Assembly (NCBI GenBank): GCA_010093745.1
Contig: MU005959.1
Coordinates: 1 to 64,000, forward strand
Direction: 5' to 3'
DNA length: 64,000 nucleotides
Origin: Piedraia hortae CBS 480.64
Lineage: Eukaryota
Under the pieces are notes generated by a model. It was not told where the DNA came from and searched no databases. It was given only the letters and a program-made list of their open reading frames with translations. Position numbers and translations under genes: made by a program. Positions 1 to 7,430 of the stretch are shown here, piece after piece (positions within the stretch are counted from its first letter, which is position 1; each line of letters begins with the position of its first letter).

Positions 1-3000
1 ACACTACCATACTGCAACTGGTATTTTTGACTCACATACATCTACATCTTTCCTGTCCCTGATTCCGTCTATCGCTCCGTCCTCTTCGGGTCGCTGTGCA
101 CTCTCACCCACGAGATCTAAATCTCTACAGTGATCAGCTGCGCTACGGACATAGACATCAGCGGGAGGGCGGAGACGACAGACTAGATATGTGATTTGAT
201 GATCTAAGTGGAGCCCAGGACTCGTATTGGTCCGAGACATGCGGGATAACCTGCTCTCTTCAACTACCGGGATTCTTCTTGGGTGAGTTCTGGAAGGGTT
301 TTGAGCTCTTGCTGGGGCGAGAGGGATACATGTCTTCGCTGGTATGCTATTCTAATAGGATGGGTTGCAATGGGTGGTTTTGGTCTTCGATGACTGGTTG
401 GATTGGTGGGAATCCTCTCACCGATGGACTTCCCGATTTCTACGTTTCGAAGGGTCCTCCATGGTTCAGTGCAAAGTACTCGATAACATACCATTCATTG
501 CGCGAATGTATATCTCCTTGCTTTCTTCGGTCGTATACGCGACAGTGTCATAGCCTTTGTTGTCCTTTAGCAGATATTCAGGTACCGTTCGCAAGGGTGT
601 ATTCAGTCCTGAGCAAACATTACGAGTATTTTCGAGATAGAAGTACTCTAGAAATTAACGTGATTCACATGCTTCGTTTGCCAAAGGGGCTGGACAATGC
701 GTTTGGCAACACCACAAACCAGTTGAGTTGCTCAATAAGTCATAATCAGTTAGAGAACTTCCTCTAACGCCTCTTTTTATCCTTTGAACAAATGTATATA
801 TCTGTACTTGCTCCTACGTAGGTTGCTTTTGCTTGGATTAGCTCCATGCTTGCGGCGAATTATCTGACCCTGATCACATCCAAAACCACTCTTTCACATA
901 TAGGGTTGGAAAGGGAACTCACTTAGATTCAAAACCTGCAGTACCCTTTGCTTACAAAGTCACCATGCATTAGCCTGTTGTAGATACAATGTGAACGAAT
1001 CCTGTAGGGCTTCGATGCTTTGAACACTGACTATCATCCTCTACGCACTCATAGCTGAATCTACTTGAATGCACAAGACCGTGGGTTGGATTACATGAAG
1101 CATGATGATGTCGTTGTCAACATAATTGTGTCCAATGCATAAAGAACGAAAAACATATAGGAATATTTTGCAATACCGGTTGGACATACCGAACCACTTG
1201 CCCAGCACAAACATCAGATCTGTCTGTAAGAGTTGTAAATTGTGTCCAGGGTCGGGTGCCTTCAATGAAATTTCCAAATGTCGTTGAACATCCAGACATA
1301 TACACGGAGATGGAATACAGGACCATCGCATCTTGTGAGGATACAAGGGAGATCTCTCAAGAGCATGTGAGATGGGCTCGAGAGTACTGGTACAACGATG
1401 GGTGCTGAATGGATGTAATGACCAAGAGTACATGTTTATCTAGGATAGTGAACATAATCCAGCACAGCACAATGATGCAGTGTTGCGTTCTGCTTGGTCA
1501 TTTTATTCTCTCGAACCAGACAGCAAGATCTGCTTGTTCGATGCGCATCAGTTAACCCGAAGGCATAACAAGGAAATTGAGCTCTATTTACTTTTCCCTC
1601 GGTCTAGGCACACACGCACGAGTGCATACGAATATCATCTCAGGGGCAGATCTCATAGCAGTTTATGATGGATGTGACGTGAAAGAGAGGTGGAGGAACA
1701 GGCAGATGTTGTCACGGACAGATTTAACGATAGCAGTCCACGGATCAATATCATATGAAGCGCTTGCTGAATGATTCTGTGCTATGCTTTTGAGCTGCGT
1801 GTCCACCTGGTGGTCTTGCAATCGCCAGACTGAGAGCCTACATGTCGAACGTTCTACAGTTACAGCAACAAAGTGAAGTGTGCGCAATGAGAAGCTGATG
1901 CACGATGGAGGGTTTCCTCAACGGAAAATCTCGCTGCTGTAGAATCGAATCAGAAACCGCCATTGACCTGATGAGGCATGACAGCTGTTGTGTCACGATG
2001 CGGACTATGCTATCCTTATAATTGTGTTGTGCCTTACGGAAGAGCTAACTACGCTATGGGCTGAAGGTGACGTGTCGGGTTACGTGGCTGCGATATGGTT
2101 CCGTGACATGTTGAAGCTGGGCAAGAGACTCTACGTCGTCCGCGTGCAGCATTGCTGACGATCAACATCGGCTTTCGAGCAGTCCATCACAGTAACATGG
2201 TATAACACGACAGCAAATCATGTTCCAACTTTGTTCAGCGGTGAAGCAACTGCTCGGCCCGACTCGCTCTCATGATTCCTCTCATGGGCCTCGGATATTG
2301 CAAACCCCTTCAGTTCCCAGTGGTATGGTAATTCGAACATCCAGGAAATGATCCTTTGAATGCTTGTGTTTACGATTGATGGACAAAAGTACGGCTCGAC
2401 GCCGAGTTTCCGGGTCTCATGGTCTGGACCGACTCCCTACTTCATTAACTGGCAGCCAGATGATCTGAAGACGGCCGGTAATCGGACCGAAGATCCTTTG
2501 TTACAGCCAGAAAGCTTTGACTCGCAAGGCGGAGCTTGGTTCCTGACTTCTTTGGGGGCGGTTTCGCTGAAGTGAGGACGGAAATGAAAGTAGATGGGAT
2601 TATTAAAGTGATCTGCTGGTATTGAGATCGAGAAGTGAATTCGTGTGGCTAAAGCCGATGTAGAGCATCATGCGAAGATTGTACAGGCAAACTCGAACAG
2701 CCAGAGTACGACAAACCCCTAGGATCTCGCCCCGCGTGTTGTGACAGGTTCGTCAGAAGTGTCAAGGACGTCAAGGGGTTCAAACATCTAGGCTAGCGGG
2801 AAGTCAGCGGGCCGCTGCAGAGCCGCCTTGCCCGAAGCCACAATGTGGGGCTGACCCCGACTTCACCTGTTACTCTCACTCTCTCTGAGACCAACGCCTC
2901 GAGACTTACATGGTATGGTTGTTATAGAATTCTTACACGGAAGTTTCCAGTTCATTCCCAACCTCATCCTCCATGTCGGACGGCCCCCAAACCACGTTAC

Positions 3001-3094
3001 GAAGGAACCTGATTGGACACAAGATGGCCGATTCACACCGAGTACACAGTGACGAAGAGGTGGAGTATTCGTTTCATACATCTCCTCACTTCAG

Positions 3095-3101
3095 TATATA
3101 A
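3095..3101 (+). promoter_or_regulatory. TATA box of the Cys/Gly polyprotein gene
   Basis: TATATAA about 140 nt upstream of ATG 3239, followed by a CT-rich leader. Confidence 0.55.
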
Positions 3102-3238
3102 CACCAGTCCATCCTCCATCCTTTCGTTCCCCATCGCATTCTCTCAGCTGGTCTTTCATTCACTACACATTTCTTCCACATTCACTTTACCCACTCGGCC
3201 ATTTGCCCATTCATCCTTTATCCAATTACTCAAGCAAA

Positions 3239-5298
3239 ATGACTAAGCTCATCTTCCTTACTGCCCTCCTCACCTCGGCCGCGCTGGCGCGTCCTTGCGG
3301 CTCTATTCCGTGAGTAGCACCCGGCAATTAATTCCCAAGTAGATCTAACAAGGGAAAGCAACTCGGTCGCACCGTCCGCTGCCGGAGCTGCTCCCTCTGC
3401 TGGTCAGGGTTGCGGCGGATGCGGTGGCGCTGGCTGCCCTAGCTGCGGCGGCAACTCTGTCGGCTCGCAAAAGTGCGGTTCGTGCGGCGGTGCTGGATGC
3501 CCCAACTGCCCCGGTGGCAACTGCGCCGGCTGTGGCGGCGCTGGCTGCCCTAGCTGCTCTGGCGGCATGGTCAAGCGCACGATCAAGCGCAACGTCGCCT
3601 TCAAGAACAACTGCGGTGGATCTGGCTGCGGTAGCGCTGGCTGCCCAAGCTGCGGCGGTAACTCCTCTTGCGGCTCATGCGGCGGTGCTGGCTGTGGCAA
3701 CTGCGGTGGCATGAAGAAGCGCACTGTCAAGCGCTGCGGCTCGTGCGGCGGTGCCGGCTGCCCCAACTGCGCCGGCGGAAACTGCGCTGGCTGTGGCGGC
3801 GCTGGATGCCCTAGCTGCTCTGGATCTACCGGCGCTCAGAAGTGNNNNNNNNNNNNNNNNNNNNNNNNNNNNNNNNNNNNNNNNNNNNNNNNNNNNNNNN
3901 NNNNNNNNNNNNNNNNNNNNNNNNNNNNNNNNNNNNNNNNNNNNNNNNNNNNNNNNNNNNNNNNNNNNNNNNNNNNNNNNNNNNNNNNNNNNNNNNNNNN
4001 NNNNNNNNNNNNNNNNNNNNNNNNNNNNNNNNNNNNNNNNNNNNNNNNNNNNNNNNNNNNNNNNNNNNNNNNNNNNNNNNNNNNNNNNNNNNNNNNNNNN
4101 NNNNNNNNNNNNNNNNNNNNNNNNNNNNNNNNNNNNNNNNNNNNNNNNNNNNNNNNNNNNNNNNNNNNNNNNNNNNNNNNNNNNNNNNNNNNNNNNNNNN
4201 NNNNNNNNNNNNNNNNNNNNNNNNNNNNNNNNNNNNNNNNNNNNNNNNNNNNNNNNNNNNNNNNNNNNNTCTACCGGCGCTCAGAAGTGCGGATCCTGCG
4301 GCGGCGCCGGTTGCCCCAACTGCCCGGGTGGCAACTGCGCTGGCTGCGGCGGCGCTGGTTGCCCAAGCTGCTCCGGCGGAATGAAGAAGCGCACTGTCAA
4401 GCGCTGCGGCTCGTGCGGCGGTGCCGGCTGCCCCAACTGCCCCGGCGGAAACTGTGCAGGCTGTGGTGGTGCAGGTTGCCCCGGCTGCTCCGGCTCTGCT
4501 CCCTCATCAAGCGTCACTGGCTCTCAGAAGTGTGGCTCGTGCGGCGGCGCCGGTTGCCCCAACTGCCCAGGTGGCAACTGTGCTGGCTGCGGCGGTGCTG
4601 GCTGCCCCAGCTGCTCCGGTGGCATGAAGAAGCGATGTGGTTCCTGCGGCGGTGCCGGCTGCCCCAACTGCCCCGGCGGAAACTGTGCAGGCTGTGGTGG
4701 TGCCGGCTGCCCCGGCTGCTCCGGCTCTGCTCCCTCGTCCAGCGTCATGGGCTCCCAGAAGTGCGGTGGCTGCGGTGGCTCCGGCTGCCCTAGCTGCGGC
4801 GGCAACTCCTCTTGCGGATCCTGTGGCGGTGCCGGTTGCCCAAGCTGCGGTGGTATGGTCAAGCGCACAGTCAAGCGATGCGGCGGTGCTGGCTGCGGTG
4901 GCTGCGCCGACTGCCCCGGTGGCAACTGCGGTTCTTGCGGCGGCGCCGGCTGCCCTAGCTGCTCAGGCTCCACTGCCGCTCAGAAGTGTGGCTCGTGCGG
5001 CGGTGCCGGTTGCCCCAACTGCCCAGGTGGCAACTGTGCTGGCTGCGGCGGTGCTGGCTGCCCCAGCTGCTCCGGTGGCATGAAGAAACGATGTGGGTCC
5101 TGCGGCGGTGCCGGTTGCCCCAACTGCCCGGGTGGTAACTGCGCTGGCTGTGGCGGCGCTGGATGCCCTAGCTGCTCTGGATCTACCGGCGCTCAGAAGT
5201 GCGGATCCTGCGGCGGTGCCGGTTGCCCCAACTGCCCAGGTGGTAACTGTGCTGGCTGCGGTGGTGCCGGCTGCCCCGGATGCTCCGGCTCGGCATAA
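3239..5298 (+). CDS. Secreted Cys/Gly-rich repeat polyprotein with Kex2-type KR sites (KEP-like; metallothionein- or CxxCxGxG-like modules)
   Basis: ATG 3239 gives the signal-peptide-like [17 protein letters not shown]. Intron 3310-3358 (GTGAGT..CTAAC..AAG) joins exon 1 in frame to the repeats [28 protein letters not shown]. Linkers are KKR, KKRTVKR or VKRT[IV]KR. Stop TAA 5296-5298. The N gap hides part of the gene. Confidence 0.85.
3845..4269. other. Assembly gap (425 N) within the repeat gene
   Basis: Run of N, flanked by an identical 20-mer at 3825-3844 and 4270-4289. Confidence 0.99.
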
Positions 5299-5777
5299 AG
5301 GGTCTATGGAAGTTTGGACAGGCCTCAATCCTTATGGGCGAATGTTTACAGCGCTGTGCGCTTTTTGACTGAGTGGGAATCAAAATTTTGACAATTTTGT
5401 AACTATCCTTTTTATATTCGTTGAGAGAATGCATTTTAACCATGTCTTTGCAATTTTCTTGTCTTTCGTCTGCTGTCTACTTTTCGCTCTTGCCAGTTGC
5501 CTTGGCAACATCCTATTGACGTTATTGAACTTCACATCGATCTAAAAGTCCTAAAGTCCTATCATGATAAGTCAAGCCAATAATCTCTTGTCAATGTATC
5601 ACATTCGTGTTAGATTTCTAGAGTGCGTCACTTATGTTCTGAATAAATACCTCTATAAATTCCCCTAACGACCGTCGATGCACATAATAGCAAAAGATTG
5701 CAAGACAACCCCCAAGAATAACCCATCCCACCCCATCAACCTTCCAATAACCCCCTTCTTCCAACGAAACTAGAAGT

Positions 5778-7430
5778 CTACTCTCCCCTCCTCGACCTCA
5801 AATTCGCCTCAATTGTCTGAATCATCCTATTCCCAATCTGGCTTGCCTCAGGGAACCTCGGCGCGAAATATCGTTGGATACGTTCAAACTTCTCCTTGTA
5901 CGCCTCAAAGTGTCCAAGACTAACACATTCACTCCAATCACGGGCTGCAAAGGTAAATTCCAAATCATCCGCACGGAAAGTATTATCCGTTAACGCAGTT
6001 TCGATCGCCTCGTTGAGGAGGGAGGGGTTGCGGTAGAGGTATCTATTTCTTAGCTGGGTTGGGGTTTTTTTTGGTGGGGAGAGGGAAGTCTTACTCTGTA
6101 ATTCCTAGCCAGAGGCGGAAGAGGGGTGTGGAGCAGATGATGTGGTCGTATGGAACGATGTGTAGTTTCCACCAGCAGTCTACGATGGCGAGGATGCTTA
6201 GGTGGTTGTTTTTGAGACGTTCTTTGGGTTTTTCGCCGACGCTGAAGCGGTCTAAGACTTCGTCTTCGAGGAGAAGTTCCTGGTCTTTGCGGGTTTTGCC
6301 GAATACGGCATCCCGCGCGGTGTAGATTCGATCTGTAAGTTCCTTGCGATGGCCCCCGAGCATGAGTTTGAAGAGTTCGGTGACGGAATCGGCGTATTGG
6401 CGGATTTGTTGTCTGGCATTGGGGTTGAGGATGGCGAGACCGGCGTAGACGTGCCATTTATTGTTGTAAATGCGGAGGGTTATGTTCATTTTTACGTTTT
6501 CGATGCCGCCGACATAGCGGGGTTCTTCCCAGGGGAATTGTTTATTGGCACACCATGCTGTGCCCATGGAGAGGAAGGCGGCGTGTGTGACGGCTTGGGT
6601 GTCGGCTGTGATGCGGTCGTGCTCAGCGGCAGATAGTTGGACGATTTCGGAGTTCATGCAGGACAGGATGTTCTTTACGAGTTCGAGGGATTTATCGGGG
6701 GCTCGATGGGGGATGATGACCAAGGGCTGACCTTTGGGGTCAACGCCGGGCCCATGGAGAGAGTGACAGGATATAATCTCAACATCTCCAGGAAGGTGTT
6801 TCTCAAACGCAGTAATCTCAGGCGCCTTGGTAGACGTTTGTCCTCCAACAATAGCACCAAGCTTGGTAGAAGGCCCGTAGGTTTCTACAATCTTATCAAT
6901 ATTGCGAGCCTCGACAGAGTACATGATCCAATCAGAAGAGCGAGACACGTAATGACCATTGAATAAGATGGAAACATTGGACTGCCTACCTTCAGCGCTA
7001 ATCATTAAAGAGTAAGGATGCCTACGTTGTCGGCAAACTCGGTCTTGAGTGCCTCAAACTTTTCAGGGACATCACACGCATGGACTCTGAGTGAGTTAGC
7101 CTGCAACTTGTTAGCAAATTACACAACAGATAGTAAGATGTTGCAGATATCTCATCAGACAAGTAATTGATTAGGTAGCTGAGATTTAACATCAGTGACA
7201 GCAGCCGGTGAGCAGAAACATCAGGACGATGAGTCCGCGGCCCAGCTGCCATGCTCGAGCCAAATGCACTCAAGTCATCATTTGCAAGGAAATGCATTGT
7301 CCATACCTTACGGGAGCAATGGAAGCAAAACGTCGGCGACTGCCTACCTCCATCCAGCAGCGCTTATCCGACGGGCATACATCTTGCCCATATCACCCAT
7401 TCCGATGATGCCGACGACAGGACTGCCCAT
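5778..7430 (-). CDS. TYR1: Prephenate dehydrogenase
   Basis: Exons 7430-7348, 7086-7026, 6981-6095 and 6042-5778. N-terminal GIIGMGDMG Rossmann motif; GGQTSTKAPE, HSLHGP and HDRITADTQAVTHAAFLSMG motifs. Confidence 0.95.
7150..7286 (-). ncRNA. snR13: Box C/D snoRNA, snR13 homolog (guides 2'-O-methylation of 25S rRNA, A2280/A2281 in yeast numbering)
   Basis: Box C ATGATGA at 7281-7275 and box D CTGA at 7158-7155. TGAGTGCATTTGGCTCGAG follows box C; its GCATTTGGCT (7267-7258) is antisense to LSU AGCCAAAUGC. A second element GCTACCT (7179-7173) is antisense to the adjacent AGGUAGC. Both match my recollection of yeast snR13. End coordinates are approximate. Confidence 0.88.

Follow-up and report, generated by a model that had tools for sequence, protein, structure and literature searches.

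A predicted spliced gene for a secreted, Kex2-type repeat precursor built of cysteine-rich twin modules in Piedraia hortae CBS 480.64

Kex2-processed repeat proteins (KEPs) are defined in fungi by working criteria: a signal peptide, at least three similar motifs between KR, RR or KK dipeptides, and repeats that make up at least 15% of the protein length (Le Marquer et al. 2019, PMC6339444). Pheromones, effectors and toxins are the typical products of such precursors (PMC6339444, PMC7329392), and the first survey cites pheromone-type peptides of 9-24 amino acids (aa) (PMC6339444). KR pairs in proteins that cross the Golgi are expected substrates of Kex2, as has been established for KEPs (PMC6339444). 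Stand-alone KEPs without homologues account for 2560 of 7878, about a third, and 78% of KEPs have no DUF3328 gene nearby (Umemura 2020, PMC7329392). In the main texts of both surveys, the cores mentioned have two cysteines (Cys) at most, or none (PMC6339444, PMC7329392). In this work, a stretch of 64,000 nucleotides (nt) of Piedraia hortae CBS 480.64 (assembly GCA_010093745.1, contig MU005959.1, positions 1 to 64,000 of the forward strand), called the window below, is analysed with a focus on a Cys/Gly-rich repeat array at 3239-5298. The locus is very probably a real, spliced, protein-coding gene for a secreted protein. Its best overall explanation, favoured tentatively and with a little less than even confidence, would be a spliced gene for a secreted KEP-type precursor that gives disulfide-locked peptides.

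The sequence from 2800 to 5700 was read and translated, giving a predicted two-exon gene on the plus strand with an ATG at 3239, an intron at 3310-3358 and a TAA stop at 5296-5298. Its parts are as follows.

3095-3101, plus strand: TATATAA box upstream of a pyrimidine-rich leader, its role being assigned from sequence only
3239-3309, plus strand: exon 1 (71 nt), encoding the predicted signal peptide, start context CAAAATG
3310-3358, plus strand: predicted intron of 49 nt, GTGAGT...ATCTAAC...AG
3359-5298, plus strand: exon 2, the Cys/Gly-rich array, ending with TAA at 5296-5298
3359-3844, plus strand: exon 2 before the assembly gap, with an Ala/Pro/Ser-rich spacer, a half-module, modules and two KR junctions
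3845-4269, no strand: 425 N, marking an assembly gap within the repeats
4270-5298, plus strand: exon 2 after the gap, up to the TAA

Exon 1 reads MTK, a hydrophobic stretch and ALA, followed by RP and PCGSI, and its last two bases belong to a Pro codon. By inspection, the predicted 17-aa signal peptide shows the standard layout of a basic n-region, then 13 hydrophobic residues as the core, and Ala at both -3 and -1; its Kyte-Doolittle 9-residue maximum is 2.54. Plain open reading frame (ORF) calling opens the Cys-rich ORF at ATG 3567, so the signal peptide is missed; the original prediction had stated that it appears only after joining across 3310-3358, and this is supported, on sequence, by a canonical intron and an in-frame join. 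The branch A of the intron sits 10 nt from the acceptor, and in-frame stops inside the intron are TGA at 3311-3313 in the exon-1 frame and TAG at 3315-3317 in the Cys frame. Splicing to another AG, at 3351-3352 and thus 6 nt before the preferred acceptor, would also preserve the frame and insert Glu-Ser behind the signal-peptide exon; this site is probably rarely chosen, as just 4 nt separate it from the branch A. The protein ends in ...CPGCSGSA and has no hydrophobic tail, so an anchor of the glycosylphosphatidylinositol (GPI) type is not expected, and no known wall-linkage motif or GPI signal was found in the predicted protein.

The case for translation comes from the nine canonical modules of the array. 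In their 36 pairwise comparisons, differences at codon positions 1, 2 and 3 number 26, 0 and 356, and 345 synonymous compared with 26 non-synonymous codon differences were counted. Nei-Gojobori estimates give a mean synonymous divergence (dS) of 0.835 and a mean non-synonymous divergence (dN) of 0.013, with a ratio of 0.016. Since the canonical modules differ almost only synonymously, the Cys frame appears to be translated and strongly constrained, and the heavy silent divergence indicates that the copies are old and that nearly every residue, beyond the cysteines, has been kept by selection. Over 4270-5298, the Cys frame alone is open throughout; no ORF in the remaining five frames exceeds 151 aa. 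The modules at 4531-4614 and 4987-5070 are identical at 83 of 84 nt and the remaining pairs share 68-79 of 84, as would be expected if a block had recently been duplicated or converted in an otherwise old array.

This constraint also bears on the intron. The first in-frame ATG of the Cys frame is that at 3567, and it is preceded by the half-module and a canonical module at 3411-3557. These modules are constrained, yet upstream of them the Cys frame is blocked by TAG 3315-3317 and offers no ATG ahead of 3567, so they would be translatable only with exon 1 spliced on; it is mainly on this argument that we infer splicing. Alternatively, the gene could be unspliced and its product not secreted, in which case ATG 3567 would be the start codon (or the locus would be decaying), the product would be a cytosolic metallothionein-like repeat protein, and the signal-peptide ORF would be a coincidence or an upstream ORF. 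Plain ORF calling does begin at 3567, classical metallothioneins are cytosolic, and no spliced contig was seen in either of the two sequencing runs described below. However, the modules upstream of 3567 show the same synonymous-only divergence, the canonical intron signals lead to an in-frame join with a textbook signal peptide, and the conserved KR junctions would lack a role in the cytosol. Taken together, this makes an unspliced, cytosolic product very improbable.

Contigs of the two runs were compared with the locus over 2900-3560. Run X1 is DNA, and the kind of run X2 is uncertain, its label 'RNA?' being a guess, so that the X2 result weighs neither for nor against expression or splicing. 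Contigs of both runs read straight through 3310-3358 with no joint, which is the behaviour expected of DNA. In addition, both runs contain a second genomic locus that matches 3231-3274, where the leader ends and the signal peptide begins, at all but 2 of 44 nt, and the stretch before this match is related and more diverged. Its presence in both runs indicates a genome with at least one paralogue carrying the same signal-peptide exon. The depth in X2 is 261-520 at the locus under study vs 62.5 for the paralogous contig, and in X1 it is 13.7 vs 12.4; from this depth contrast and its coverage, X2 looks non-uniform. In X2, positions 2900-2968 are uncovered; the first covered position is 2969, which precedes the TATATAA box. 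If this start is real, the ATGs at 2973 and 3024 would open upstream ORFs of 42 and 25 codons in the leader.

The run of N interrupts the array. The last 65 nt before it (3780-3844) are identical to 5137-5201, and the first 35 nt after it (4270-4304) match 5182-5216 exactly. The two flanks share 20 nt, and ...STGAQK-C... is encoded by both in the Cys frame. As the flanks overlap and lie in exact repeats, the 425 N are best understood as a short-read assembly break, which might even be of zero length. Anywhere from none to several modules may be hidden in it, and the visible counts may fall short of the full number of the gene. Because 425 is not divisible by three, ORF tools switch frame at the run. 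The counts of modules, cysteines and residues given below therefore cover the 503 visible residues of exon 2, with the run of N excluded.

The array consists of 12 eight-Cys modules, nine canonical and three variant, and one free-standing four-Cys half-module, i.e. 12.5 modules. A canonical module of 28 aa ends in [S/G]C and comprises four knuckle-like CxxCxG turns in a row. At its simplest the array repeats every 8 residues (CxxCxGGx); as these repeats come in two flavours that alternate, there is also a period of 16 residues, and one 28-aa module is built from four knuckles. The periods of 48 and 105 nt reported by Tandem Repeats Finder agree with this structure. There are 100 Cys, 97 of which belong to 49 CxxC pairs. 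These pairs are followed by xG in 48 of 49 cases and form CxxCxGxG in 23. CPxC also occurs 23 times, in every case with Gly two positions past the second Cys, and four of these are exact CPxCG. CxC, CC and CxxxC are all absent from the visible exon-2 residues, and each module has an even number of cysteines (8 or 4). After the gap, the composition is 32.7% Gly, 21.0% Cys, 12.0% Ser, 9.3% Ala, 7.9% Pro and 4.7% Asn, with a single Asp and no Glu, His, Phe, Trp or Tyr; Tyr is absent from the whole predicted protein. The following modules are placed by coordinates.

3411-3446, plus strand: four-Cys half-module of 12 aa
3474-3557, plus strand: canonical 28-aa eight-Cys module, upstream of the first in-frame ATG 3567
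3612-3704, plus strand: variant eight-Cys module, in the sole single-module KR-bounded unit
3735-3818, plus strand: canonical module with one Pro to Ala change
4288-4371, plus strand: canonical module
4762-4848, plus strand: variant eight-Cys module
4879-4962, plus strand: variant eight-Cys module
4987-5070, plus strand: canonical module

Six dibasic junctions with 10 KR dipeptides divide the array, in most cases once every two modules, and the linkers with which they alternate are KR-free and of the type ...[T/M]GSQK. All 10 Arg of the array lie within K-R dipeptides, the codons of which vary synonymously (CGC/CGA, AAG/AAA). The junctions and the units that they bound are listed below.

3570-3590, plus strand: junction VKR-TIKR
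3714-3734, plus strand: junction KKR-TVKR
4384-4404, plus strand: junction KKR-TVKR
4627-4635, plus strand: junction KKR
4858-4878, plus strand: junction VKR-TVKR, the second half of which, TVKR, forms a spacer at 4867-4878
5083-5091, plus strand: junction KKR
3591-3722, plus strand: single-module KR-bounded unit, the only one of its kind
4405-4635, plus strand: twin-module unit with 16 Cys and an inner linker predicted to be uncleavable, ending in KKR
4636-4866, plus strand: twin-module unit with 16 Cys, a canonical module followed by the variant at 4762-4848, ending in VKR
4879-5091, plus strand: twin-module unit with 16 Cys, the variant at 4879-4962 followed by the canonical module at 4987-5070, inner linker SGSTAAQK, ending in KKR
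5092-5295, plus strand: C-terminal twin-module unit with 16 Cys, inner linker SGSTGAQK

Four complete KR-bounded twin units are thus visible, of 77, 77, 71 and 68 aa with their basic tails and of 74, 74, 68 and 68 aa without them. The N-terminal KR-bounded piece consists of the spacer, the half-module and a module. Two half-pieces flank the gap, and if nothing separates them in the genome, they would together form one more twin unit, the fifth. From this arrangement, Kex2 processing into twin modules is considered probable. Most of what the original prediction had described in the array is seen again: its dozen or so modules correspond to the 12 and a half counted here, its six dibasic junctions are exactly those to which coordinates are now assigned, and their position after every second module is mostly found, with four twin units and one single-module unit. 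Likewise, products of about 65-75 aa and about 16 Cys had been proposed, and the four predicted units, at 68-74 aa without basic tails and 16 Cys each, fall in that range. The near absence of acidic and aromatic residues also stands, with one Asp after the gap and no Glu, Trp, Tyr or Phe.

The same junctions can be set against the view that the protein is never cleaved and acts as a disulfide cross-linking cement of the wall or matrix, in which the basic linkers would serve as spacers or charge patches and the chain would polymerise via intermolecular disulfides. Its Cys/Gly richness recalls the ultra-high-sulfur keratin-associated proteins, and a paper on these proteins was the single relevant one found for CGSCGG in the literature searched. 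KR in Gly-rich linkers is an expected Kex2 substrate (PMC6339444), however, and the doubled sites (KKR-TVKR) and their alternation with KR-free linkers resemble processing signals. With no GPI signal, no known wall-linkage motif and no Pfam structural family matched, an uncleaved cement is regarded as improbable.

If cleavage does occur, the released peptides could be bioactive, for example as a signal, an antimicrobial or an effector directed at a host or competitor, with identical copies raising the dose of one ligand. This would be in line with the pheromones, effectors and toxins for which KEP architecture is typical (PMC6339444, PMC7329392), and the dN/dS of 0.016 across residues fits a product with a specific partner. 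On the other side, units of 68-74 aa with 16 Cys far exceed the 9-24 aa of pheromones cited in the survey text (PMC6339444), and the Ste13 signature is lacking, no XA or XP dipeptide following KR at any KR of the array. The units have a net charge near zero and no hydrophobic residues, and the neighbours are housekeeping genes only, without a receptor or cluster context in the window. Usual antimicrobial peptides are not of this near-zero charge without hydrophobic residues. A bioactive role is accordingly judged quite unlikely.

In the preferred reading, that of a secreted KEP-type precursor of disulfide-locked peptides, the precursor would enter the endoplasmic reticulum, Kex2 would cut after the KR pairs in the Golgi, and Kex1 would trim the basic tails. 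A twin-module peptide of 68-74 aa, with 16 Cys and hardly any charge, would be released in at least four copies and probably in more, together with one single-module peptide and one N-terminal peptide. As there is no hydrophobic core and there are no aromatic and almost no charged residues, the fold must rest on the cysteines. Given the predicted passage through the oxidising secretory pathway, four disulfides per module are taken as the likeliest state, which would amount to two in each 12-aa half-module (CxxC-x4-CxxC), perhaps with bound metal in addition. Since one 12-aa half-module stands by itself, CxxC-x4-CxxC, closed by two disulfides or by one metal, may be the minimal unit that folds. 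Disulfide knots are the first choice because the Cys counts are even and because Gly, Ala, Pro and Asn are kept, as tight packing would require. The product would then be compact, protease-resistant knots outside the cell or in the wall, i.e. a uniform protective or structural surface peptide, and the gene would probably yield many copies of one small cross-linked peptide. By analogy with the CXXC-rich extracellular surface proteins of Giardia and other protozoa, which offer the best functional parallel found, a disulfide-locked surface or matrix role is possible, although the chances are somewhat against it.

The chemistry of the CxxC pairs allows another outcome, in which the secreted peptides are metal-thiolate peptides, i.e. 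an extracellular or wall-bound metallothionein-like or zinc-knuckle array that buffers, scavenges or detoxifies soft metals. In that case, CxxC knuckles would act two by two to bind Zn(II) tetrahedrally (about two ions per module), or each CxxC would bind Cu(I). Several lines of evidence point this way: 23 of 49 CxxC fit CxxCxGxG, 23 CPxC are present, and four are exact CPxCG, which is a zinc-knuckle consensus (PMC4999995); six of the eight weak database matches described below carry PF00684, GRXCR1-2_C or BSD2_CRD; and the composition, with 21% Cys and no His or aromatic residues, is metallothionein-like. In addition, chelators, like reductants, destabilise the CXXC-rich variant-specific surface proteins (VSPs) of protozoa (PMC6341118). 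Against it stand the lack of any Pfam match, metallothionein and DnaJ families included, at expectation values (E) up to 10, and the absence of CxC and CC. The non-Cys residues are all conserved too, beyond the needs of simple chelation, and the knuckles lie 4 residues apart, which is tighter than in zinc ribbons or DnaJ domains. Cys4 sites are also rare and prone to oxidation outside cells. Secreted metal-thiolate peptides are therefore seen as a rather unlikely explanation. Thiol/disulfide exchange, with the DnaJ-type zinc-finger proteins LQY1 and CYO1 as a possible parallel, is a third possibility for the chemistry.

Relatives of the array were sought in several collections. In Pfam, no families, those of metallothionein, DnaJ (PF00684), PF03302 and keratin included, were matched by the proteins P0001 and P0002 (E up to 1) or by three of the units (E up to 10). 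A sequence search of the PDB with P0002 gave only nuclear-receptor zinc fingers, at E 0.0016 or weaker, and a profile of four units gave no PDB matches at E up to 10. In a collection of 5.8 billion proteins, where the 8000 candidates sharing most words were scored each time, none was found at near or shorter lengths, and one weak match, the FGE-sulfatase protein P0011 (E 2.5e-4), was found at longer lengths. A library of 1.84 billion representatives gave seven matches, at E 2.4e-5 to 6.7e-4 and none at 1e-10 or better. These weak matches look prokaryotic, and six of the eight carry PF00684 (DnaJ_CXXCXGXG), GRXCR1-2_C or BSD2_CRD, five having PF00684 itself. The likeness would be at the level of motif and composition rather than demonstrable homology, as E of 1e-5 to 1e-3 is compatible with composition alone; the low-complexity correction of HMMER lowers scores for such sequences. 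One library match, P0010 (572 aa, unnamed, probably bacterial), has weak LysM matches (E 8e-4) and, at its C-terminus, CxCxGxGCxxC / CxxCGGGGCxxC modules separated by Arg runs, which parallel the fungal array; over 97 residues its identity to the array is 40%, with a pairwise E of 2e-4. No usable match for P0002 or a 74-aa unit was obtained in the ESM Atlas, and the 328 pattern matches in JGI metagenome contigs yielded none confirmed by tblastn. These negatives cover protein collections and metagenome contigs and not a collection of fungal genomes, and a gene apparently overlooked by annotation here would be overlooked in relatives too. Four module motifs were not found in the literature searched, nothing similar was found in literature on secreted metallothioneins or on CXXC, glycine-rich and Kex2, and the supplement texts of the two KEP surveys do not contain the motifs, although their picture tables could hide one (PMC6339444, PMC7329392).

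Several points weigh against a secreted precursor of disulfide-locked peptides. A spliced joint at 3310-3358 was not seen in contigs of X1 or of X2, the kind of which is uncertain, and the run of N hides part of the gene. No homologue is present in the searched collections to show conservation beyond this genome. The N-terminal product would have an odd number of cysteines (13), and a structural wall polymer would need no cleavage sites. AlphaFold2 gave a predicted local distance difference test (pLDDT) score of 50.9 for a 68-aa unit with a 4-row alignment and of 39.8 for 342 aa as a single sequence; these models are unusable, so the disulfide pattern is a conjecture. Finally, CxxCxGxG and CPxC[G/S/P]G are classical metal-binding knuckles, which favours metal binding over disulfides (PMC4999995).

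Downstream of the gene, the neighbours are housekeeping genes, among them those for a ubiquitin-conjugating enzyme, a YggS-type pyridoxal phosphate (PLP) protein, galactokinase and a RIO kinase, together with RPN1, PI31, an Arc1-like protein, NUDIX, MCM6 and others; an ORF at 6094-7053 has no Pfam match at E up to 1e-5. Upstream, within the 3.2 kilobases (1-3238) that the window holds, there are 27 ORFs of at least 50 aa, none with a Pfam match at E up to 0.01, so that a long gene-free stretch lies beside a dense housekeeping region. No DUF3328/UstYa gene was found (E up to 1e-5) among the 33 likely genes that were selected from the 104 ORFs of at least 120 aa, nor was DUF3328 found in these 27 upstream ORFs and 6 unassigned ORFs (E up to 0.01). 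A tyrosinase or other tailoring gene was likewise not seen among the window ORFs tested against Pfam.

If the peptides exist, the KEP class would extend from short linear or cyclised peptides to long, cysteine-held domains, and the array would provide a test case for what dense extracellular CxxC arrays do, be it metal handling, redox exchange or a protease-proof coat. A broader proposal is that of a new fungal class of Kex2-matured, poly-knuckle twin modules that act as extracellular Zn/Cu metal-thiolate buffers or thiol/disulfide exchangers, possibly with at least one paralogue. This proposal is doubtful at present; if true, metallothionein would gain its first 'poly-knuckle' counterpart that is both secreted and made by ribosomes. 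With the signal peptide on a separate 71-nt exon and with repeats that break short-read assemblies, such genes escape catalogues, and surveys on annotated proteomes, as both KEP surveys were, would miss one.

Several known systems share features with the array. One domain that it recalls in motif is the DnaJ cysteine-rich (CR-type) zinc finger (PF00684, with the related GRXCR1-2_C and BSD2_CRD and the plant proteins LQY1 and CYO1). Consecutive CxxCxGxG are shared, 23 of 49 being exact, and prokaryotic arrays of this family are the sole proteins found by phmmer, which upholds the DnaJ likeness noted in the original prediction. LQY1 and CYO1 are listed among the plant thiol/disulfide-active proteins (PMC3800646). 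The array differs in that it fails the PF00684 profile, its knuckles abut with 4-residue spacing, it has no J or other domain, and it carries a secretory signal.

The VSPs of Giardia (PF03302) are also extracellular and have many CXXC as their only common feature. In these and other protozoan CXXC-rich extracellular surface proteins, disulfide and/or metal cross-links provide stability and protease resistance, and reductants and chelators alike abolish this resistance (PMC6341118). VSPs are long, membrane-anchored and variable in sequence, whereas the array protein has no anchor, is predicted to be cut into near-identical units and does not match PF03302. Fungal metallothioneins share the very high Cys content, the richness in Gly, Ser, Asn and Ala and the lack of aromatic residues and His. 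Metallothionein clusters typically mix CxC, CC and CxxC; the array has CxxC only (no CxC or CC), a signal peptide and KR sites, and matches no metallothionein Pfam family. The ultra-high-sulfur keratin-associated proteins of the KAP5 type share CGSCGG-like Cys/Gly/Ser strings. These are animal, intracellular hair proteins, and no Pfam keratin family, keratin B2 included, was matched at E up to 10; the suggested link to keratin found no support, and the likeness is compositional only. In short, the array failed the profile tests for the DnaJ CR domain, metallothioneins, VSPs and keratin-associated proteins despite likeness to several of them in motif or composition. Hydrophobins, which have eight Cys with two adjacent CC pairs, were rejected as well, as the array has no CC and no Pfam match.

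Dikaritin or ustiloxin-type precursors are close in architecture, with repeated cores in a secreted protein. No DUF3328 gene was found nearby among the window ORFs tested, in agreement with the original prediction, and with no Tyr in the protein there is no short YxIx-type core, so the array is not a dikaritin-type precursor. The closest system is that of the KEPs, including alpha-factor precursors and Ustilago Rep1. A signal peptide is predicted by inspection, given the splice; six junctions, four complete twin units and others provide more than three repeats between KR, RR or KK; and the 12.5 modules span most of the 503 visible exon-2 residues. The array thus shares with KEPs the signal peptide, near-identical KR-separated cores and repeats that dominate the protein, and, like many of them, it stands alone without a DUF3328 neighbour or homologues. 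On sequence, the Kex2-processed repeat architecture that had been proposed therefore agrees with the working criteria for KEPs (PMC6339444). The claim of a new extracellular peptide system goes too far, since stand-alone KEPs are common (PMC7329392). In the array, a core of 68-74 aa with 16 Cys and an uncleavable internal linker is predicted, compared with 9-24-aa pheromone peptides, and a KEP with such a long, all-CxxC twin core was not found in the available texts of the KEP surveys or in the literature searched. The oddity of this predicted precursor is the kind of core and not the architecture, which is that of a KEP.

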